Source: Candidatus Altimarinota bacterium
GTDB taxonomy: Bacteria; Patescibacteriota; Gracilibacteria; UBA1369
Direction of reading: 5' to 3'
Assembly (NCBI GenBank): GCA_963677745.1
Contig: OY782391.1
Span: forward strand, 416,001-480,000
Length of the DNA: 64,000 nt
The stretch's first letter is position 1. Every line of letters begins with the position of its first letter. This document shows, piece after piece, positions 13,683 through 49,493 of the stretch. Made by a program: the position numbers and the translations under genes. Under the pieces are notes generated by a model. That model was not told the origin of the DNA. It was given only the letters and a program-made list of their open reading frames with translations, and searched no databases.

Positions 13683-13925
13683 ATGCTGATTCAAGTCGAC
13701 AGATCAAAATGTATCGGAGCCGCTCCCTGCGTGGCCATTGCCGGTGATGTCTTTCAACTGGATGATGAAGGTAAAGCAATCGTCGTCGCCCCGGTCAAAG
13801 ACGAGGCCAATGTCAGACTGGCCGCCGAATCCTGTCCGGTCAGAGCCATTTTTCTTTACGACGACCAAAAAAATCAGATATTTCCCCCTCCGGCGGAAAT
13901 CGCCCGCCCTTACCAGGAAAATTAA
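13683..13925 (+). CDS. Monocluster ferredoxin (probably [3Fe-4S])
   Basis: CIGAAPC (second Cys replaced by Ala)...AAESCPVRAI. Confidence 0.88.
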   Translation: MLIQVDRSKCIGAAPCVAIAGDVFQLDDEGKAIVVAPVKDEANVRLAAESCPVRAIFLYDDQKNQIFPPPAEIARPYQEN

Positions 13926-13926
13926 T

Positions 13927-14901
13927 ATGACCACTCTTACGCAGACATACCGTATTGACCCCGAACTCGCCCGCCAGGCCTGGTCTGCCATCTGCGAAGC
14001 CTCCACCATCGCCATTATTTCCCATCGTCACCCCGACCCGGACAGTGTCGGCAGTAATCTGGCGCTGCGGGAACTTCTGCAATCCGAAGGAAAAAAAGTT
14101 GATTCATATTCCCTTGATTCCCCGCCCCCCTCCTGCCGGGAATTGATCCCTGACTGTTGCGAATTTTCCTCAGAATTTGATCCGCAAAATTACGATTTGA
14201 TCATCTGCGTCGACTGCGGCAGCCTTTCTCAGGTTGCTTTTGATCTTTCCACCAACCGGACCATGCCCCTGATCAATATTGACCACCACACTTCCAATAA
14301 TAATTACGGCCAGCTTAATCTGGTTTTTCCAAGTGCCTCTTCCACCTCCGAAATAATTTTCAAACTGCTGGAGATCTGGGAAAAACCGGTCACCGTCAGT
14401 CAGGCCACCGCACTGTTAATGGGGATTTATTTTGATACCGGCAGTTTTATGCATTCCAACGTCAGTTGTGAACTGCTCGAAATTGCCTCCGGCCTGATTC
14501 TTCGCGGTGCAGACCTGTCACTGATCAAACGCAGCCTTTACCGGAATTTCAGCGAAAAAAAATTCCACCTGTGGGGAGATGTTCTGGGAAGCGTCAGGGT
14601 AACTGACGAAGGAGCGGCTGTGGCGGTAATTACACCGGAAAATGTCCGGAATCATCTGACCGGGCCGGAAGACACCGGCGGCCTGATCGATTATGTCTGC
14701 ATGGCCAAAGACAGCCGGTTCGCACTTATGGTAACCGAAGAAGAAAAAGGCCAGCTGCGGGGTTCCATCCGCACCCGCCACGACCAAGTTGACGTCTACA
14801 AAATTGCCCAGACTCTGGGAGGCGGCGGCCACAAAAAAGCCTCCGGTTTCAGCTTCCCGGGCACCATGAGAAAAGAATCCCTTTGGAAAATAACCAACTA
14901 A
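13927..14901 (+). CDS. DHH/DHHA1 phosphoesterase (NrnA-like nanoRNase/pAp phosphatase)
   Basis: HRHPDPDS, VDCG, IDHH, DTGSF, GGGGHKKASG. Start moved to ATG 13927, just after the ferredoxin stop. Confidence 0.92.
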   Translation: MTTLTQTYRIDPELARQAWSAICEASTIAIISHRHPDPDSVGSNLALRELLQSEGKKVDSYSLDSPPPSCRELIPDCCEFSSEFDPQNYDLIICVDCGSLSQVAFDLSTNRTMPLINIDHHTSNNNYGQLNLVFPSASSTSEIIFKLLEIWEKPVTVSQATALLMGIYFDTGSFMHSNVSCELLEIASGLILRGADLSLIKRSLYRNFSEKKFHLWGDVLGSVRVTDEGAAVAVITPENVRNHLTGPEDTGGLIDYVCMAKDSRFALMVTEEEKGQLRGSIRTRHDQVDVYKIAQTLGGGGHKKASGFSFPGTMRKESLWKITN

Positions 14902-14904
14902 ACT

Positions 14905-16839
14905 ATGAATCAGATCATAGTGATTAAAGACAATGGGCAGGAAAGCCCGTTAAACCAGAATGAGCTGTTGTCGGCTCTGCAAAAAATCGCCGTGGAAGAA
15001 GGTCAAAACAACTTTTCCACGGAATTTCTCTGGGAAAAAACCGGCAAGTATCTGGAGATTTTTCTGACCGGACCCCAAAAACAACTTACCGAAATTCAAC
15101 TGATCGGCCTCCTGGCCAATATTTGTCTGGAAAACGGCTTTGAAAAGGTCGCCCGGGCCTTGCAAAAAATCCATTCACTGGCACCCGGCAGTGCCGATTA
15201 CGCAGGTTCATCCACCGGTAAACTGACCAAAAACACCCAGGAAAAGATGAAAAAGCTTTATCTGCCCCCTGCCCAAAACAACTGCGAAACAGAGATCCTG
15301 GTCAACAAAATCGCCTCCCACAAAACTTCGGAAGAATTGACAGCCAGAATCGCCGCCCTGATCGGACAAAACAAGTTTTTCCCCCATCAAAACGTCCTCA
15401 AAGGCCCCCACGCCTACGAATCGATGCAGATTACACTGGAAGACAATCTGAACGATATTTTCGACCAGCTCAAACAGGCGGCCATCAATTTTCAAAATCT
15501 CATTTCCACCAATCTGGACTTTTCCAAAATCCGCCAGAAAATGGCCATGATCAAATCCACCCGGGGCTTTTCCTCCGGGCCGATTTCTTTCATTAAAATT
15601 TACACTTCGACTTTTGAAACGCTGCGCCAGAACCTCAGTACGGAGCTGATTCCCCAGCAAAGTTTCACCCTAAGCATTCATCATCCCGACATTCTGGAAT
15701 ACCTGATCTTTATCAAGAATTTCCAAAAAAACTCCCTCAACAAACACCTGCGCTTTTTTATTGAGATATCCCCCCAGTTTCTGGATGCACTGGCCAGAGA
15801 GGAAGATTTTGAACTGATCAGCCCCGAGAACGGACAGACCGTCAATCTGCTCAGTGCCAAAAACACTTTTGATCTGATCGTCTCCACCATTGTGGAAAAC
15901 CCCCAGCTGGGCATCAAACAAAACAAAAGTTCACACAGTAATTTTCTGACCGTTTCCGGCCTGATCAATCTGGCGGGCTATCAACCGGGCCCTAACTTTC
16001 CCGGGGACCTGTTAAACGACCTGAAAACCATCCAGGATTACCTGCTTAAACAAAAACACCAGCTGGAAAAACTATCCAAAACGGAAATTCACACCGTGAT
16101 TTTCTTCAGCGGCTGGATGGACTTTCTGATGGCCAGAAAAATTGCCTACGGATCGGTCAATTCCATTCAGGAAGCCGGCACGCTGTTTGCCGAAATCCGC
16201 AAATCAGCCGACCAGTCCCTGGAACTCTCCATCAATTTGCATTCTCCTTTGCTCAACCTGGTCGAAAGCCACAAAGGCCTGGAATGTTTCGAACAGCTGG
16301 CCACCCTTAAAACCAATCTGGACGGACAGGAAATTCATCAACTGGACCCGATCCTGAGGGACTATTTGTCGGAGCTGGGAATGGCCACCAATGATATCAC
16401 GCGACTGATCTACGATACCAATTCCTTAAACGACCTCTACCAGATCCCTCTCAACATCAGGACACTCTTCAAGACTTCCCGCGAAATCGACGCCCATTTC
16501 CATCTGGAACTGCAGAGAGAAATCGAAAACATTCTGCAGGGAGAAGTGGAAAAAAAGATTTACTTCGAAAATCCGCTCGACACCGAAAAACTCAAAGAAA
16601 CTTTGCTGGGGAAACTGAAACTTGGTATAAAGAATATCGGATATTTCCATTTTGGTCCGGTCAGCAAATACCAGGAAAATACCGAAACGGACCAGGGAAA
16701 AAACTTTCTGTTAACCCTCAATAAAAACAAAAAACGCCGCCACCGCGAAATCCAGCCCCCGCTTTTTCAAATCAAAAAAACGGAAGAAATCTTCCTGCCT
16801 CCCGTCTCCAACCAAAGCCCCAGCCAAAATCAAAATTAA
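14905..16839 (+). CDS. Ribonucleotide reductase large-subunit homolog, predicted catalytically inactive (NrdJ/NrdA-like, degenerate ATP cone)
   Basis: RNR blocks in colinear order (EDNLNDIF, DFSKIR..IKSTRGFSSGPISF, HHPDILEY, FELISP, LINLA, FKTSREID), but no SAC Cys, no NPCxE and no CNL Cys. Confidence 0.8.
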   Translation: MNQIIVIKDNGQESPLNQNELLSALQKIAVEEGQNNFSTEFLWEKTGKYLEIFLTGPQKQLTEIQLIGLLANICLENGFEKVARALQKIHSLAPGSADYAGSSTGKLTKNTQEKMKKLYLPPAQNNCETEILVNKIASHKTSEELTARIAALIGQNKFFPHQNVLKGPHAYESMQITLEDNLNDIFDQLKQAAINFQNLISTNLDFSKIRQKMAMIKSTRGFSSGPISFIKIYTSTFETLRQNLSTELIPQQSFTLSIHHPDILEYLIFIKNFQKNSLNKHLRFFIEISPQFLDALAREEDFELISPENGQTVNLLSAKNTFDLIVSTIVENPQLGIKQNKSSHSNFLTVSGLINLAGYQPGPNFPGDLLNDLKTIQDYLLKQKHQLEKLSKTEIHTVIFFSGWMDFLMARKIAYGSVNSIQEAGTLFAEIRKSADQSLELSINLHSPLLNLVESHKGLECFEQLATLKTNLDGQEIHQLDPILRDYLSELGMATNDITRLIYDTNSLNDLYQIPLNIRTLFKTSREIDAHFHLELQREIENILQGEVEKKIYFENPLDTEKLKETLLGKLKLGIKNIGYFHFGPVSKYQENTETDQGKNFLLTLNKNKKRRHREIQPPLFQIKKTEEIFLPPVSNQSPSQNQN

Positions 16840-16842
16840 ATC

Positions 16843-17436
16843 ATGCTCGATATCATCAGCACTCTGCTCGTAATAGGCGTATTACTGCCCATCCTTTATT
16901 TCACCAGCAGTAATTTCAATAATATTTTTGCCCTGGTCGCCCTCATACTGATTTCCGTTCCGACCATCATGGCTATGATCAACGGGGCGCCCTTTGTCCC
17001 CACCCCCATGAAACGGGTCAAAGAAATGGTGGCCCTGGCCAAAATCAAAAAAGGCCAGGTAGTTTATGACCTGGGCTGCGGGGACGGCCGTTTTGTCTAC
17101 GTTGCCGCCAATCATTACGGGGCCAGGGCCACCGGAATTGAACTTTCCCCCCTGGTTTATGCCTTCGCAGTGATCAGAAAATGGTTATGGAGATCCAAAG
17201 CCAAAATCAAATTCGGCAACTTCAAATTTTACGATCTGTCCGACGCCGATATCATTTTCTGTTATCTGCTTCCCGACACCCTCAAAAAAATCCAGCCCGA
17301 ACTGGATAAACAATTCAAATCCGGCACCAGAATTTATTCCTACGCCTTCACCATCCCCGGCTGGAAACTGGTGGAAACAAAAGAAAGGGTTCAAAATCTC
17401 AACCTTGGACCGATTTTCGTTTACGAAAAACCATAA
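16843..17436 (+). CDS. Membrane-anchored class I SAM-dependent methyltransferase (FAM173-like)
   Basis: Two N-terminal TMs, GAPFVPT, YDLGCGDGR, GIELSP, IFCYL, SYAFTIPGW. Confidence 0.88.
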   Translation: MLDIISTLLVIGVLLPILYFTSSNFNNIFALVALILISVPTIMAMINGAPFVPTPMKRVKEMVALAKIKKGQVVYDLGCGDGRFVYVAANHYGARATGIELSPLVYAFAVIRKWLWRSKAKIKFGNFKFYDLSDADIIFCYLLPDTLKKIQPELDKQFKSGTRIYSYAFTIPGWKLVETKERVQNLNLGPIFVYEKP

Positions 17437-40770: not shown

Positions 40771-40801
40771 ATTGTCCCAGTATATTCATTATTTCAAGAA
40801 T

Positions 40802-43800
40802 ATGCCGAAGAAAAAATCTTCCACATCGAAAGCCAAGAAGCCACTAAAAAAAGCCGCAGCGTCAAAAAAGACCGCTTCGGTCAAAAAGCCGGTTAAGATT
40901 AAGAAAGCCCCGGCCAAAACTTCCAAACCGGTAAAAAAGACAGCAGCCAAACCAGCCCAGAAAAAGAAGGCTGTAAAGAAGGTTTTGAAAAAGACCGTCT
41001 CCAAAGCTGCCAAAAAAGCTTCCCCCGCCAAGAAAAAGCCCGCTGTCAAAAAAGCACCGGTTAAAGTTAAAAAACCGGCCGCCAAAGTCAAAGTCAAACC
41101 GGCTCCCCAGAAAACGGTCAAAAAAAACGTGCCCGTCAAACCCGTAAAAACGGTTAAAGCCAGCACGCCCAAAGTTCCGGCCAAAAAAGTTGAAAAGCCC
41201 GCCAAGGAAATCAAGGCCGTACAGCCAAAAGCCGCTCCTCAAACCGCCGCCAAGAAAACGGAAAAAGAACTTCCGGCCGCTCCTGCCAAAAAAAGCAAAG
41301 AAAACGTCCGGGAAATTCCCCGCAAATTAAACAAAGACTTTTCTCTGGCCGAAGAAGTTTCAAGACTGCTGCCCAAGGAAAACATTATCATGAAAGAATC
41401 GTCCAACCGGAGATTCTTCACCGATCGTATTGATAAAGACATTGTTCTCCCCAACCTGATCGAAATCCAGCTGGATTCCTATCGCTGGTTTCTGGACATC
41501 GGTATCCGTGAACTGCTGGATGAAATTTCTCCGATTACCGATTTCTCCGGTAAAAAACTGGAACTCCAGTTTTTGGAACATTCCGTGGACGAACCGAAAT
41601 ACGACCCTGAAACCTGCCGTCTAAAAAATCTGACTTACGAAGCTCCCCTCAAAGTCCACGTACAGCTGATCAACAAGGAAACCGGTGAAATCAAGGAACA
41701 GGACGTCTTTTTGGGCGCCATTCCGCTGATGACTCACAAAGGAACCTTTATCGTTAACGGAATCGAAAGAGTAGTTGTTTCCCAGATCGTCCGCTCCCCC
41801 GGCGTGTTTTTCTCAAGAAATGCCGGTGCCCTGAACTCCTTCAACGCCAAGATCATCCCCAAACGCGGTGCCTGGCTGGAAATCGAAACCGATAAAAAAG
41901 GTATTATCAGCGTGAAAATCGACCGCAAAAGAAAAATCCCCGTGACTTCGCTGCTGCGCGTTTTCGGTTATCCCACTGACGACGAAATCCGGGATGTTTT
42001 CAAGGATGTGATCGGAGGTCCGGATAAAGACTATATATTAAATACTCTGGACAAGGACACCTCCAAAACCGTCGACGAGGCATATCAGAACATTTACAAA
42101 AAGATCCGCCCCGGCGACCTGGCTACTCCCGAGAATGCCAAATCACTGATCCAGTCGATGTTTTTTGATTACAAGAAATACGATATGGGACCGGTGGCCA
42201 GATACAAACTCAACAAACGTTTCAACCTCAACACTCCCAACACCAAAGATTTTCATACCCTGCAGGTTGAAGACATCGTTTATATTCTGAAACATCTGAT
42301 TCAGCTCAATAACGGCATCGGCAGAGAAGATGATATCGATCATCTGGCCAACCGCCGCATCCGTGCCGTGGGTGAACTGGTGCAAAACAAATTCCGCGTG
42401 GGTTTGCTGCGCACCGACCGTATCGCCAAAGACCGCATGACAGTGATGGATCTGGAAACGGTTACCCCCACCCAGCTGATCAATTCCCGCCCGATCACCG
42501 CCGCCCTGCGCGAATTCTACGCCAGCTCACAACTTTCCCAGTTTATGGATCAGACCAATCCGCTGGCCGAACTGGCACACAAACGCCGTCTGTCCGCCAT
42601 GGGTCCCGGAGGTTTGACCAGAGAAAGAGCCTCCTTCGACGTACGTGACGTGCATCCGTCCCATTACGGAAGAATCTGCCCGATCGCCACTCCCGAAGGT
42701 CCGAACATCGGTCTGGTCGTGCATCTGGCCACTTATGCCCGCGTCAACAAATACGGCTTCATTGAAACTCCTTACCGCACCATGAACGACACCATCGCGG
42801 TCAAAGATATCAAGAAACTGAAAGGCAAGAAACTGCGCTCCGACCTGATCAATCCCGCCAACGGCAAAATTATTCTGACCAAGGAAACAGTGCTCGGTGA
42901 AAAAGAAATCGCCAAGATCAAGGATTTGGGATTTGAAACCATCAAAGTTTTCAAACACACCACCGACGACGTGCGTTATTATGCCGCCGACGAGGACAAC
43001 GACAAAGTGATCGCGCAGGCCAACACCAGACTGGATGAGGAAGGACAGATAGTCGATTCGCTGGTTTCCGGAAGACAAAACGGAGAACCGGAACTGGTTC
43101 CGGCCAAGAACATCACGCACATGGACATCTCCCCGAAACAGATTATCTCCGAGACCACGGCCCTCATTCCGTTTTTGGAACACGATGACAACACCCGCGC
43201 CTCCATGGGTTCCAACATGCAACGTCAGGCCGTCTCACTGATCTCTCCGGATGCTCCGGTGGTCGGTACCGGTATGGAAGAAATAGTCGCCAAGAGTTCC
43301 GGCCAAATCTATCTGGCCGAAAACAACGGTACGGTTTCCTACGTTGATGCCGAACAGATAGTAGTGATCTACGACAATGGTAAAAAAGCCATCTACAAAC
43401 TCAACAATTACGTCCGCTCCAACCAGTCCACCTGTATTCATCACCGGGCCAGAGTCAACAAAGGCCAAAGAGTAACACGCGGTGATGTCCTGTCCGACGG
43501 TCCGGCCACCGAAAACGGTGAATTGGCCCTGGGCAAGAATGTCCTGGTCGCCTATATGGCCTGGAAAGGTTACAACTTTGAAGACGCCGTAATAGTATCC
43601 GACCGCATCGTTAAAGCCGGCTATTTCGATTCAGTACACATTGAAGCATTTACCATCGACGTCCGCGACACCAAGCTGGGCCCTGAAATTATTACCCGGG
43701 ACATTCCCAATGTCGGTGAAGCCAGACTGAAAGATCTTGATGAAAACGGAATAGTGAGAATCGGTGCCACCGTCCGCGAAGGTGACATCCTGGTCGGTAA

Positions 43801-45088
43801 AATCACCCCCAAGGGCGAAACCGAACTTTCCGCTGAAGAAAGACTTCTCCGCGCCATTTTTGGCGACAAGGCCAGAGATGTTAAAGACACCTCGCTGCGT
43901 CTGCCCGGAGGTGAAGGCGGCAAAGTGGTGGGAGTTCAGATCTTCTCACGCTCCAACGGCGATGAACTGCCGACCGGAGTCAATCAGCAAATTAAAGTAA
44001 ACGTCGCCCAGACCAGAAAAGTATCGGTAGGTGACAAAGTGGCCGGAAGACACGGAAACAAAGGTGTCATCTCGGTCATCGTGCCTCAGGAAAATATGCC
44101 ATTTTTGGCAGACGGCACCCCGATCGACATCATTCTCAACCCGTTGGGTGTGTCATCCCGTATGAATATCGGACAGATTCTGGAAGTGCATCTCGGCTGG
44201 GCCGCCAGAAAACTTAATTTCACGGTTGCCACCCCCGCCCTTAACGGTATTCACACCGACCAGATCAAAGAACTGCTCAAACAGGCAAAACTGCCCGAAG
44301 CCGGTAAAATTCAGCTTTATGACGGTATTACCGGTGAGCCTTTTGATCATCAGACCACAGTGGGAATTGCCTATATTATGAAACTATCCCATCTGGTTGA
44401 AGATAAAATTCACGCCCGTTCAGTCGGTCCTTACTCTCTGGTCACCCAGCAGCCGCTCGGTGGTAAAGCCCAACACGGAGGACAGAGATTCGGAGAAATG
44501 GAAGTATGGGCACTGGAAGCTTATGGTGCCGCCCATACCCTGCAGGAAATGCTGACCATCAAGTCCGACGATATCTATGGCCGCGCCAAAGCCTACGAAT
44601 CAATTGTCAAAGACGAACCGATCAAGAAACCAAAAACCCCTGAATCGTTCAACGTTCTGGTACGGGAACTGCAGTCATTGGGTCTTTCCGTTAAATTTGA
44701 AAACTCACACACCTCGGCTGAAGATGAATACGAAGGTAACCCCGAACTGGAAGATGTGGCCGAAATAGAACCCGAGACCAGAGAAAGTCTGGCCCTGCAG
44801 GCGGAGATTACTCAAAAAATTGCTGCCGAAGGGGAAGAAACGGATAAAGTTGAAAAGAATGTTTCCGGAATTGAAGTGGTGAAAGACACCGAAGAAGAAA
44901 ACCTGGAAGTCAAAGAGATCAAGGAAGAAGGAGATCCTGCCGACCTGGAAGATTTCGCCAAGATGGAAGCGGAACTGGATCTGGATCAGATCGACGCCCC
45001 GGAAGAGGAACTGCGGGCTATGGAAGAAAATCCCCTGCCCCTGGAAGATCTGGATATCCCTGAAGTAGATGAAGACGTTAAGCCCTAA
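40802..45088 (+). CDS. rpoB: RNA polymerase beta subunit with K/A/P-rich N-terminal extension and acidic C-terminal tail
   Basis: [59 protein letters not shown]; ATG at 40802 (internal ATG at 41390). Confidence 0.97.
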
Positions 45089-45590: not shown

Positions 45591-48500
45591 ATGAGTTTCA
45601 ACGACAATAGTAATTCAGCCCAAAACAAAGCCCGAGAGGCCTTCGATAAAATTTCCATTTCGGTTGCTTCACCCGAAGAAATTCTGTCCTGGTCATTTGG
45701 GGAGGTAAAGAAACCGGAAACAATCAATTACCGGACACAGAAACCGGAAAGAGACGGTTTGTTTTGTGAAAAGATCTTCGGTCCCACCAAAAACTGGGAA
45801 TGTTATTGCGGAAAATACAAAAGAATCCGTTATAAGGGAATCATTTGTGAAAAATGCGGAGTCGAAGTCACCCACTCCTCAGTCCGCCGCTCCCGCATGG
45901 GACATATTAAACTGGCCGTGCCGGTAACCCATATCTGGTTTCTGCGTTCCACACCTTCCAGAATCGGCCTGCTTTTGGATCTGCCCATCAAAGCCATTGA
46001 ACAGGTCGTTTATTTTGCCGCCTATGTCATCACCGAAGTTGATGAAAAAGCCAAGGAAGAGGCCCGTGAACAGCTGACCAACGAATACAAGAACCTCCGC
46101 AAAAAAATCCAGGAAGACTCTTCCCGTGCCACCGCCGGTGCCAATAATGAAAAAGGCAAAACCGACAAAATCGAAAAAGATTACTCCCATAAACTGGACG
46201 AACTGGACAGCCAGCACAAAAAGACCAAGGAACAGCTGGAAGGAATCCGCATCACAGCCATCTACTCCGAACTGGAATATCGTGAACTTTCAACCAAATT
46301 CGGTCAGATCTTCAAGGCTGGCATCGGCGCCGAAGCCATCCGTCATATTATCCAGAACCTCGATCTGGAAGTGATGATCAAAAATCTGGACAAAGAACTG
46401 GTAAAATCTTCCGGACAGAAGCAGAAAAAAATCATCAAAAGACTGAAATTGGCCGGAAGCCTGCTCAAAGCCGATATCCGACCGGAATGGATGATCATGA
46501 CTGTCTTACCGGTAATTCCACCGGATCTGCGTCCGATGGTACAGCTGGACGGTGGAAGATTTGCCGCCTCCGACCTGAATGACCTTTACCGCCGTGTCAT
46601 CAACAGAAACAACCGTCTGAAGAGACTGATGGCCATCGGCGCTCCCGAAGTGATCTCGCGCAATGAAAAGAGAATGCTGCAGGAAGCCGTAGACACACTT
46701 TTAAATAATTCCGCCCGCGCCGGCAAAACAGTTTTCAATTCCGGGGACAAACGGAAACTCCGCTCCCTCTCCGACATGCTCAAAGGTAAGCAGGGACGCT
46801 TCCGCCAGAACCTGCTCGGTAAACGTGTCGACTATTCCGGCCGCTCCGTAATCGTGGTAGGTCCTTCGCTGAAACTGGATCAATGCGGTTTGCCAAAACA
46901 GATGGCCATGGAACTTTTCAAACCGTTTGTGATCGGCAGACTGATCCGCGACGGACTGGCCCACAACATCAAGAGCTCGGAAAAACTGATTCAGGCCGGT
47001 ACCAAGGAAGTCTGGGATATTCTGGAAGAGGTCACCTGTGACCGCTATGTACTTTTAAACCGCGCCCCGACACTGCACAGACTGGGTATTCAGGCTTTCC
47101 GTCCCGTACTCGTTGAAGGTAAAGCCATTCAGATCCATCCGCTGGTTTGTACCGCTTTCAACGCCGACTTTGATGGAGACCAGATGGCCGTCCATGTGCC
47201 GCTTTCCAAACCGGCCCAGGAAGAAGCCAAGAATCTGATTTGTTCCAGTCACAACCTGCTTAAACCATCGGCCGGCGAACCAATTGTTACTCCGGTACAG
47301 GACATGGTATTGGGCTGTTATTATCTGACCAAGGAAACTCCGGGCAAAAACGGTGAGGGCACCAACTATACCGATCTGAATGAGGCAATCCTGGCCTGGA
47401 GAACCAGCAATCTTCACCTGCAGGCCAAAATCAAAGCCCGCTTCCGCGGAGAAATCCGTGAAACCACTCTGGGCAGACTGATTTTCAACAGTTTCCTGCC
47501 GGAAGAACTCCCCTATTACAATCAGACTTTTGGCAAAAAACAATTGAGCGCACTGCTTAACGACGCCTTTCTGATAGTCGGCGGCGCCAAAGTCGCCGAG
47601 ATCGTCGACCATCTGAAAAAAATCGGTTTTGAATTCGCCACTTATTCGGGTCTATCCATCGGCGCCGCCGACATGATCATCCCCCCCACCAAGGGCAAGA
47701 TCATCGACGATGCTTCGGGACAGATCAAACAGATCAACAATCTGTACCAAAGCGGTCTGATTACAGACAACGAGCGTTACAACCACACTATTAAGACCTG
47801 GAACAAAGCCAAAAACGAAATCTCCAAAGTGATGATCGACGGTATCGATCCCGAGAATGATCTGCACTATATGATCAACTCCGGAGCCCGTGGTAACTGG
47901 GGACAGATTACCCAGCTCTGCGGAATGAAAGGCTTGGTGGCCAATCCTTCCGGTAAGACGATCGAACTTCCCATCAAATCCAACCTCAAAGAGGGCTTTA
48001 CCATTCTGGAATACTTCATCGCCACTCACGGAGGACGTAAAGGTAAATCCGATACCGCCTTGAAAACCGCTGAAGCCGGCCATTTGACCCGTCGTCTGGT
48101 CGATTCGGTACAGGATATCATCATCAAAGAAATCGATTGCGGGTCCGTCCATTCCCATATTGTCACCAAAACCGAATCCGACCGTATCGGTGAAAAACTG
48201 GAAAACAGAATTTTCGGACGTGTTCTGGCTGAAAACGTGGTTAACCCCAAAACCGGAGAAATAATTGCCGAAAAAGGCCAGGAAGTTGACCGGAAAATCA
48301 TCAAACAGATCGAAGACTTCAACGTGGAGGAAGTTAAAGTCCGCTCAGTCATCACCTGCCGCACCCGCGGCGGTATCTGTGTCCGTTGTTACGGCAGAGA
48401 TCTTGGTACCAACAAAACCGTCGAACCCGGAACAGCCGTCGGTATCATCGCCGCACAGTCAATCGGAGAACCTGGTACGCAGTTGACGATGAGAACCTTC

Positions 48501-49493
48501 CACATGGGTGGAGTTGCTTCCGAAGAAGGAGACATCACCCAGGGTCTGACCCGCGTGGAAGAACTGTTTGAAGCCCGCGCCCCCAAATCACCGGCCATCA
48601 TGACCGAACTGTCGGGTATCGCAGAAATTACCAGCAAAGGCCAACTGACCGAAATCAAAGTCACCACCGAAGAACCTCTCGAAAAAGACTATCTGCTGAT
48701 CGGAGATCTGGAAGCCACCGTCAAAAAAGGTGACGTGGTAAAAGAGAAAGAAATCATTGCCAAGTCCCCGCTGAGCAAGAATATGATCAGAGCCGAATTT
48801 AACGCCAAGATTCTGGAGGTTAACACCAATCACGTTCTGCTCCGCAGCATGGATCTGATTTCCCGCACCTATAAGATCCCCTTTGGTAAAATCATCAAGA
48901 TCAAGAACAAGGCCAAAGTTCAAAAAGGCCAGTCATTGACTTCCGGCCACCTCAACCTGCGCGATCTGATCAATCTGACCGACGTCTACACCGCCCAAAA
49001 ATATCTGGTTTCCGAGGTCCAAAGCATCTACGCCTCACAGGGACAGACCATCAACGACAAACACATTGAAATCATCGCCCGCCAGATGCTCTCCAAAGTC
49101 AGAATTGTCGACCCCGGAGAAACGCATTATCTGCCCGGTGAAGTGGTAGACATCCTGGAAGCCGAAGACGCCAACCTGAAAATGGAAAAAGAGAACAAGA
49201 AAATGGCTTCCGTGGAAAGACTGCTTTTGGGTCTAACCCGCATCTCGCTCCACACCGACAGCTGGCTCTCCGCAGCCTCATTCCAGGAAACAATCCGTGT
49301 TCTGGTCGAGGCTTCCACCACCAACAAAGTGGATGTACTGGAAGGTCTGAAGGAAAATGTTATCATCGGTAAACTGATTCCCGCCGGCGAAACCTACAGA
49401 AAACGCCACCCGGAACTGGTCGATGAATTTGCCAACCTGGGAAATAAAGAACCTCAAATGATCGAAAGGCCGAAATTCTATCCGGCCATCTAG
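45591..49493 (+). CDS. rpoC: RNA polymerase beta' subunit
   Basis: Zn-finger [43 protein letters not shown]. Confidence 0.99.

Follow-up and report, generated by a model that had tools for sequence, protein, structure and literature searches.

Introduction

Ribonucleotide reductases (RNRs) are among the most studied enzymes, and to our knowledge their allosteric specificity site is not considered separable from catalysis. Inactive relatives are familiar from betaherpesviruses, animal viruses whose R1 homologues are of class Ia descent and act on host signalling. Those of murine cytomegalovirus (MCMV M45), human cytomegalovirus (HCMV UL45) and human herpesvirus 6B (HHV-6B U28) are described as having lost enzyme activity and been repurposed (PMC11772975, PMC5469499). 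Here we describe a gene (14905..16839, + strand) in a 64,000-nucleotide stretch of Candidatus Altimarinota bacterium DNA (assembly GCA_963677745.1, contig OY782391.1, positions 416,001 to 480,000; hereafter the window), from a genome that is a single 1.336-Mb contig. Its product, hereafter the window protein, is by its sequence a non-catalytic descendant of the class II (B12-type) RNR NrdJ. The inactive betaherpesvirus R1 homologues are its closest known analogues: in both cases the R1 fold is present, the catalytic residues are lost and the gene has been kept under selection. Unlike the viral proteins, the window protein is chromosomal and of bacterial class II NrdJ descent, and it has reduced relatives down to a stand-alone half-barrel; the parts conserved here are an allosteric and dimerisation block and a putative docking motif of the replication type.

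The described enzyme that the window protein most resembles in sequence and fold is the dimeric class II NrdJ of Thermotoga maritima (Protein Data Bank entry 1xje). Both have an N-terminal cone, an all-alpha N region and a barrel, in that order, and both have the specificity-site Asp and Arg and loop 1. The window protein differs in that it has no radical finger, redox Cys pair, GGG loop, phosphate loop or Cys-rich domain, and ends in a tail found only in its lineage. The RNR specificity site is reported to lie where a four-helix bundle forms the dimer interface, together with loops 1 and 2, of which loop 1 is beside the effector and loop 2 bridges to the active site (PMC4728125). The C-terminal Cys pair or Cys-rich domain is described as needed for re-reduction; the Cys-rich domain is said to mediate turnover, and NrdJd proteins without it to be confined to genomes in which a second NrdJd has it (Loderer et al. 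2017, PMC5704485). A comparable pairing occurs among relatives of the window protein: three genomes (G005, G016 and G022) have an intact NrdJ without the Cys-rich domain beside one that has it. The difference is that here a motif-bearing tail replaces the domain, and that the lineage then loses catalysis.

The tail in turn resembles those of sliding-clamp clients such as Hda and DNA polymerases, in which a short motif with conserved positions 1, 4 and 5 lies in a disordered terminal tail. The clamp-binding consensus is given as QL[S/D]LF, in its more general form QxxLF, and positions 1, 4 and 5 as the critical ones (PMC12309361), and the clamp motif of Hda as QLSLF/QLSLPL (PMC5397184). The window protein departs from known clients in having Pro-Pro at positions 2 and 3 (QPPLF), and its clamp binding is a candidate property. 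In the accessible text of PMC5397184, RNR and the clamp are linked solely via control of nrdAB expression by regulatory inactivation of DnaA (RIDA). A search of literature titles and abstracts, supplementary tables aside, returned no bacterial RNR pseudoenzyme and no RNR or RNR homologue described as a clamp client.

Results

The open reading frame (ORF) starts with ATG and runs uninterrupted through 644 amino acids (aa) to its stop codon. The sequence blocks that had led the initial annotation to an RNR alpha subunit are all present in the translation (IVIKDNG, KLYL, FFPHQNVL, EDNLNDIF, DFSKIR..IKSTRGFSSGPISF, HHPDI, FELISP, SGWMDFL..IAYGS and FKTSREID). Pfam PF02867 matches the protein with an E-value of 8e-26 and covers aa 177-336 and a weaker C-terminal stretch; the RNR homology is significant, yet partial. 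The best NCBIfam models are those of B12-dependent class II RNRs, all scoring far under their cut-offs (NF006417, 139.1 bits against 961; TIGR02504, 99.9 against 399.95), and the closest solved structure is T. maritima NrdJ (E = 1.5e-10). Phylogenetic analysis places the window protein within bacterial class II NrdJ, beside intact Peribacteria NrdJ, with no common descent with the viral class Ia R1 homologues. An ancestry in class II or class Ia had been proposed from the sequence; the best NCBIfam models, the structure match and the tree all favour class II (NrdJ), and the class Ia part of the proposal falls away. A search of 1.84 billion representative proteins gave 2,026 matches at E <= 0.001 and 19 at E <= 1e-30, about 17 of them full-length relatives. 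We also searched metagenome contigs with the window protein; the 80 loci kept were ordinary RNRs of 20-36% identity, matched via the generic SGPxSF pattern, with no close relatives among them. In public databases, the stripped proteins and the miniature relatives described below go under the names "ribonucleoside-diphosphate reductase alpha chain" and "hypothetical protein".

To place the catalytic residues, we anchored T. maritima numbering by aligning an intact relative to 1xje (C134, D141, N320, C322, E324, C333). Alignment with intact relatives shows that the window protein has no Cys at the position of C134, the first redox Cys (the site, within YESMQ, reads M/Q), that the GGG loop GGGTGF is changed to NLISTN, and that the finger loop N320-P-C322-x-E324 is deleted between PQLGI and SGLINLA. 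The C333 site CNLGSINL reads VSGLINL, and the substrate phosphate loop TIAPTGT reads SINLHSP. The C-terminus has neither a Cys pair nor a Cys-rich domain, and the tail contains no Cys at all. Only three Cys residues occur in the protein (positions 74, 127 and 461), as had been counted at the outset, and none is at a catalytic site; nor does the stripped clade offer a substitute active-site Cys, no Cys column being present in more than 12 of 34 sequences. All catalytic motifs are likewise missing from all 32 of the closest database proteins (P0001-P0032). One pattern match to a finger, NTCKE at residue 136 of P0031, lies outside the finger position, and we rejected it as a chance match. The initial description of an intact but catalytically stripped RNR homologue is thus borne out by the alignment. 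With the radical Cys loop deleted and the redox Cys pair, the phosphate loop and the reductant-shuttling C-terminus likewise lost, we conclude that the window protein is unable to reduce nucleotides.

The fold is predicted to persist despite these losses. An AlphaFold2 model from a 63-row alignment had a mean predicted local distance difference test (pLDDT) score of 87.9 and a predicted TM score (pTM) of 0.76, and was weak only at aa 94-104 and in the tail from about aa 588 (pLDDT below 50 at aa 94-104, 588-617 and 619-623). The top Foldseek matches were RNR alpha subunits only; T. maritima NrdJ was matched at probability 1.00 over about 625 columns, with a TM score of 0.62-0.66 and a root-mean-square deviation (rmsd) of about 4.5-5 Å. 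The ten-stranded RNR barrel is therefore predicted with confidence.

Constraint on the gene was measured by the Nei-Gojobori method against the orthologue in the related genome G002. The proportions of nonsynonymous and synonymous differences (pN and pS) were 0.227 and 0.660, giving an omega of about 0.17, the same as for the neighbouring DHH gene, and DnaN gave about 0.03. Identity between the two genomes was 63% for the window protein, 92% for NrdA and 90% for DnaN. The frame is open in all 14 genomes with a full-length form, down to about 30% identity. These values are those of a gene that is not a decaying pseudogene, which was the alternative that a comparison of orthologues had been proposed to address. 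Congeneric pairs of the miniature forms, in which synonymous divergence (dS) is unsaturated, point the same way (G020-G049, dS 0.56, omega 0.083; G013-G044, dS 0.28, omega 0.021), with constraint equal to that on DHH or tighter.

This constraint is unevenly distributed along the protein. The N-terminal domain (aa 1-95; 14905..15189, +) is a diverged ATP-cone-like region predicted as a hairpin and four helices, with 47% identity to G002 and an omega of 0.26. The ATP-cone family PF03477 matched neither this region at E <= 0.01 nor the whole window protein at E <= 1; intact, intermediate and cone-bearing miniature orthologues have an ATP-cone at E-values of 1e-20 to 1e-24. Thus, the ATP-cone-like start that had been noted is not a recognisable Pfam ATP-cone, while the predicted hairpin and helices and the canonical cone of intact orthologues are compatible with it. 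The next segment (aa 96-175; 15190..15429, +), a linker and a remnant of the all-alpha N domain that ends at the first redox Cys position, is the least constrained (50% identity, omega 0.41). The conserved block (aa 176-337; 15430..15915, +) comprises the first half-barrel, with both dimer-interface helices, loop 1, the start of loop 2, HPDI and ELISP..NLLSA, and coincides with the Pfam match at aa 177-336; it is 88% identical, with an omega of 0.058. The rest of the barrel (aa 338-587; 15916..16665, +) is degenerate, still predicted to be folded, and absent from the miniature forms (57% identity, omega 0.16). The C-terminal tail (aa 588-644; 16666..16836, +), disordered by its low pLDDT and carrying two short linear motifs, is 71% identical with an omega of 0.14; within it, the motif segment (aa 612-634) is 91% identical, with omega undefined at a pS above 0.75. 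Column conservation over aa 180-335 in the stripped clade equals or exceeds that of the same region of active enzymes, and the catalytic-core segments are relaxed. We conclude that the gene is kept by purifying selection, concentrated on the first half-barrel and the disordered tail.

Residues of the specificity site are retained within the block. D180 and R210, the equivalents of D141 and R171, each persist in 13 of 14 stripped, 8 of 10 miniature and 6 of 6 intermediate forms, and the equivalents of F167, S168, S185-G186-P187 and F190 are also kept. The K158 position is already Gln in the 8 intact tailed enzymes. The view that the specificity-site and dimer-helix region is the best-kept part of the body, put forward from the sequence alone, is supported by these residues (the Asp of ED and the Arg of KIR) and by the contrast in omega, about 0.06 in the block against 0.16-0.41 elsewhere in the body.

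The tail and the miniature relatives, both absent from the initial annotation, are two of the most informative features of the system. The last 57 or so residues carry the sequence HREIQPPLFQIKKTEEIxLPPI. Within it lie QPPLF (aa 617-621; 16753..16767, +), which resembles the sliding-clamp-binding motif QxxLF, and KKTEEIFLPPV (aa 624-634; 16774..16806, +), a second motif with the consensus [EQ]E[IV]xxPP[IV]; each occurs once in the genome. Q617, P618, F621, E628, P632 and P633 show no variation among 34 clade proteins and L620 is 97% conserved, so that Q617, L620 and F621 occupy positions 1, 4 and 5 of QxxLF. Of 42 stripped-clade proteins, 41 have both motifs, and none of 60 ordinary RNR representatives outside the lineage has either; among the last 60 residues of 61 ordinary RNR representatives, either motif was found only in P0070, which belongs to the tailed Peribacteria lineage. 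The tails of intact relatives read QLSLF exactly (G005) or Q[VIA][SA]LPF, followed by EE[VI]xPPP[IV], and those of the miniature forms read Q..LPF ... EEI.PPPV; the second motif is common to both groups.

Other proteins of this genome carry motifs of the clamp-binding type. Its Y-family polymerase (DinB) has QLSLF 42 residues from the end, its stand-alone 5'-3' flap exonuclease ends in QPSLFE, and its RNase H ends in QSSLF (...KKTEEKIDNQSSLF). Among flap-exonuclease orthologues in the order, 26 of the 28 complete ones end in QxxLF. The genes for the flap exonuclease, RNase H and Y-family polymerase lie outside the window (G000:C1:770031-770960, G000:C1:1112789-1113316 and G000:C1:5860-7104, respectively; loci L207-L236). 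A complex prediction pairing a DnaN alignment with tail residues 596-644 scored 0.01; it was run without controls and weighs neither way on binding.

We took a census of the family across 36 genomes, this genome (G000) included. The full-length stripped form (583-675 aa) was found in 14, among which the G004 copy is cut by a contig end and that of G007 is an intermediate with the first Cys and a canonical ATP-cone. Seven genomes have an intact-length tailed NrdJ with all catalytic motifs, ten have miniature forms (frames of 186-409 aa), four gave no match with the query used, and one, a 53%-complete genome, gave only a class I-type match. The intact NrdJs of about 730-770 aa (loci L018-L021, L267, L273 and L274, in G005, G022, G011, G016, G051, G042 and G047) have every catalytic motif and no Cys-rich domain; in place of this domain is a QxxLPF ... 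EE[VI]xPPP[IV] tail. In these related Candidatus Peribacteria and Peregrinibacteria genomes (Patescibacteria), the intact gene occupies the same slot after a DHH gene as the window gene does. The window protein is therefore the positional orthologue of a real class II RNR.

In the miniature forms, deletion of the second barrel half leaves only the conserved block and the tail, in some cases preceded by an ATP-cone. Those without a cone (G012, G013, G044 and G045; 186-217 aa) are equivalent to residues ~176-337 plus the tail and are encoded after the DHH gene; at least 15 further clusters of this type (183-212 aa) exist in a large protein collection, where the named ones are "hypothetical protein". 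Those with a cone (G020, G048, G049, G050, G021 and G046; frames of 316-409 aa) have a canonical ATP-cone followed by the block, and Pfam matches the cone at an E-value of about 1e-23 and positions 5-156 of the barrel. The model of a 212-aa miniature protein has a pLDDT mostly above 90 over residues 7-168 and a disordered tail; its superposition on the T. maritima NrdJ first half-barrel has an rmsd of 2.4-2.9 Å across about 161-165 columns. Since the miniature proteins lack it, the second half of the barrel is dispensable.

A real RNR is also present in all 14 genomes with a stripped form, and it is of three kinds. Seven have a class I NrdA, six of them together with a class III NrdD; five have a class II enzyme of about 1,200 aa, which in the three examples examined has NPCSE, CNLAS, [VI]APTGT and a Cys-rich end; and two have an enzyme like ribonucleoside triphosphate reductase (RTPR), scoring 311 bits with TIGR02505 against a cut-off of 340. 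These RTPR-like, monomer-type class II RNRs (L203/L205, G003:C4:156011-158341; L206, G024:C2:76269-78542) have an ATP-cone-like N-terminal start and a C-terminal CxxxxC, and are the only real RNRs found in G003 and G024. The search suggested earlier for an intact RNR elsewhere in this genome was positive, revealing a class I NrdA adjoining NrdB, plus a class III enzyme. The depiction of the organism as a nucleotide-scavenging symbiont does not fit a genome with class I and class III RNRs, nor the report that Peribacteria encode nucleotide synthesis (PMC4736985). Two further class II enzymes in the comparison are intact: in the NPCGE finger of P0148, an intein-like insert of about 130 residues separates the radical Cys precisely from the Gly-Glu that comes after it, and P0174 has the finger variant NLCGE.

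The path to the non-catalytic forms was traced in trees. In a 69-row tree, the 32 fully stripped proteins formed one clade with a Shimodaira-Hasegawa-like approximate likelihood ratio test (SH-aLRT) support of 100, and all 39 non-catalytic rows lay on one side of a branch with support of 100. A 47-row tree of full-length sequences that included the miniature forms grouped all 30 non-catalytic rows (SH-aLRT 98). Intermediates show stepwise erosion: P0061 retains the first Cys, a PNCE remnant and C333, P0152 a C333-like Cys, and G007 the first Cys only. The single non-catalytic clade may reflect long-branch attraction. In genus g19, an intact enzyme (G051) and miniature forms occupy the same slot, and the cones of miniature forms are most similar to that of G051 (65-73%), in a cone-only tree that is itself unresolved; an approximately unbiased (AU) test did not reject the g19 miniature forms and G051 as one clade (p = 0.156). 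One catalytic loss and several are both possible, and taxonomy and synteny favour more than one reduction. In G005, G016 and G022, the intact tailed NrdJ co-occurs with an NrdJ of about 1,210 aa bearing a Cys-rich end. Since the tailed enzyme has no such domain and stands alongside a second NrdJ that has one, a tail-dependent role may predate the loss of catalysis.

The gene directly upstream (13738..14901, +) encodes a DHH/DHHA1 protein (Pfam DHH and DHHA1), whose stop lies 3 nt before the RNR-like start; its best NCBIfam model is NrnA, at 75.7 bits against a cut-off of 350. In all loci examined, this gene directly precedes the intact, stripped and miniature forms, separated from them by 3 nt or overlapping them. 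Read from the listed TTG start, the DHH protein has 387 aa, and most orthologous frames examined are about 320-335 aa, so the true start probably lies further downstream. An S-adenosylmethionine (SAM)-methyltransferase-like gene (16843..17436, +) starts 3 nt after the RNR-like stop and is adjacent or near-adjacent in relatives; its best NCBIfam model, archaeal protein-lysine N-methyltransferase, matches weakly (75.5 bits against a cut-off of 200). That it might modify the Lys-rich tail of the adjacent gene product is pure speculation. Between the RNR-like gene and the methyltransferase gene, two loci have an extra ORF of about 360-376 aa that is absent in the window (L012:3287-4414 and L016:3239-4315), and L034, L035 and L046 have a gap of 1-1.6 kb. 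All loci examined are collinear, with the gene order YidC, Jag, SLH/DPBB, HAD, DHH, RNR-like, methyltransferase, ComEC(-), lipoprotein(-), LytR.

We considered genetic code 25 (TGA = Gly), on account of a match named Candidatus Altimarinota and of in-frame TGA codons in the search output for two orthologues, and rejected it. Since TGA terminates 7 of the 40 long ORFs of the window and is never in frame there, the standard genetic code holds in the window. Most long ORFs are on the + strand, GC skew is negative in all 2-kb bins of the window (1-64000; -0.04 to -0.20) and AT skew is mostly positive; skew and strand bias fit a position on one replichore. Two of the ORFs are very long (40772-45088 and 45591-49493).

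Discussion

We propose that the window protein works at the replication machinery as a nucleotide-state sensor or adaptor, its tail docking to a partner, rather than as an enzyme; the evidence leaves us evenly poised on this reading, which we nevertheless prefer. The protein would still dimerise via the retained four-helix interface, and its Asp/Arg/loop-1 site, also retained, would bind a nucleotide effector. The tail would dock the protein to a partner, the best candidate being the beta sliding clamp (DnaN) via QPPLF, and the docked protein would then report nucleotide state or act as an adaptor at the replication machinery. Such a second, tail-linked role would probably predate the loss of catalysis, intact relatives having the same tail instead of the Cys-rich domain. 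We infer both the sensing of deoxyribonucleoside triphosphates (dNTPs) and the clamp docking by reasoning from these conserved features. A fuller scenario can be imagined, in which the specificity site of RNR was freed as a stand-alone dNTP sensor: in Peribacteria, NrdJ swapped its redox tail for a clamp-docking tail and so came to sit at the replisome, lost catalysis (probably more than once), shrank in some genera to a half-barrel of about 200 aa plus tail, and now binds the clamp and reports or buffers local dNTP. In all its parts together, we think this scenario improbable.

Several observations weigh against the sensor or adaptor reading. The distal part of loop 2 (R207, R208 and G209) is lost in all non-catalytic forms and the ATP-cone of the window protein is strongly diverged, so nucleotide binding may be weakened or changed; moreover, the reading assumes for D141, K158, R171 and K202/Q203/R207 of T. 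maritima NrdJ the roles attributed to them in the literature. Binding of a nucleotide or partner is putative, and dimerisation and effector binding are plausible from the residues retained. Pro at positions 2 and 3 of QPPLF is atypical when set against QL[S/D]LF, and the clamp-like motif is missing in 3 of 10 miniature and 3 of 6 intermediate forms. Of the two motifs, the second is the more nearly universal, and no partner is known for it. The gene is dispensable in some lineages, since the query used gave no RNR-like match in 4 of the 36 family genomes. Because the entire region is collinear, the neighbourhood says little about function. Finally, dS between G000 and G002 is near saturation (1.6).

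We considered whether the gene is simply a redundant former nrdJ adrift, its frame open by chance or because inactivation was recent. The loss of every catalytic residue would be expected of such a gene, as would its faster evolution relative to housekeeping genes, seen in the identities of window protein, NrdA and DnaN to G002. However, a frame open in 14 of 14 full-length-form genomes, a pN of 0.23 against a pS of 0.66 that matches a functional DHH neighbour, an omega of about 0.06 in the block, tail residues invariant in 34 proteins and omegas of 0.02-0.08 in miniature forms at unsaturated dS make decay extremely improbable. Equally far-fetched, in our judgement, is a surviving enzyme in which substitute residues support nucleotide reduction or some other radical or B12 chemistry. 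Retention of the barrel fold at high predicted confidence speaks for it, but the finger loop is deleted, the phosphate and GGG loops are lost, no Cys column rises above 12 of 34 in the clade, and the miniature forms do without the second half of the barrel.

Two other explanations keep a non-catalytic role and place it elsewhere. The protein might be a regulatory or poison subunit that heterodimerises with a real RNR alpha through the four-helix interface and modulates it, a version of the dominant-negative partner envisaged in the initial annotation. The dimer-interface helices are indeed the best-conserved part of the body, and every genome with a stripped form has a real RNR for it to act on. 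However, that RNR varies in kind (class I with or without class III in 7, long class II in 5, RTPR-like in 2), and the RTPR type is described as monomeric, with an insertion of its own that imitates the dimer interface (PMC5704485). The window protein also shares only about 25% identity with the class I enzyme in the interface region, and its conserved tail would be left without a role. We regard such a subunit as quite unlikely, and unlikely above all as a general role, given that the co-resident RNR differs between genomes. Somewhat less remote, and still improbable, is a nucleotide-salvage scaffold, in which the tail, especially EE[IV]xxPP[IV], would bind the upstream NrnA-like DHH phosphoesterase or another non-clamp partner and the block would be its nucleotide-binding regulatory subunit. 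The placement of the DHH gene directly before intact, stripped and miniature forms, and the greater universality of the second motif, agree with this idea; against it, adjacency is weak evidence in a region collinear family-wide, the four family genomes gave no RNR-like form with the query used, and the conservation of QxxLF/QxxLPF goes unexplained.

The family provides a natural dissection series in one genomic slot, from an intact enzyme through a full-length dead enzyme to a stand-alone half-barrel. Should the module still bind dNTPs, it would represent a nucleotide sensor of a new kind and offer a minimal system in which to study RNR allostery. Were the tail to bind the sliding clamp, an RNR-family protein would for the first time be tied directly and physically to the bacterial replisome, which would bear on the old question of dNTP channelling and the replication hyperstructure. 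Stripped forms counted as enzymes would inflate metabolic reconstructions for candidate phyla radiation (CPR) genomes. Should the fuller scenario of a clamp-bound, stand-alone dNTP sensor be true, precursor supply would be coupled to replication in bacteria with minimal regulatory repertoires.

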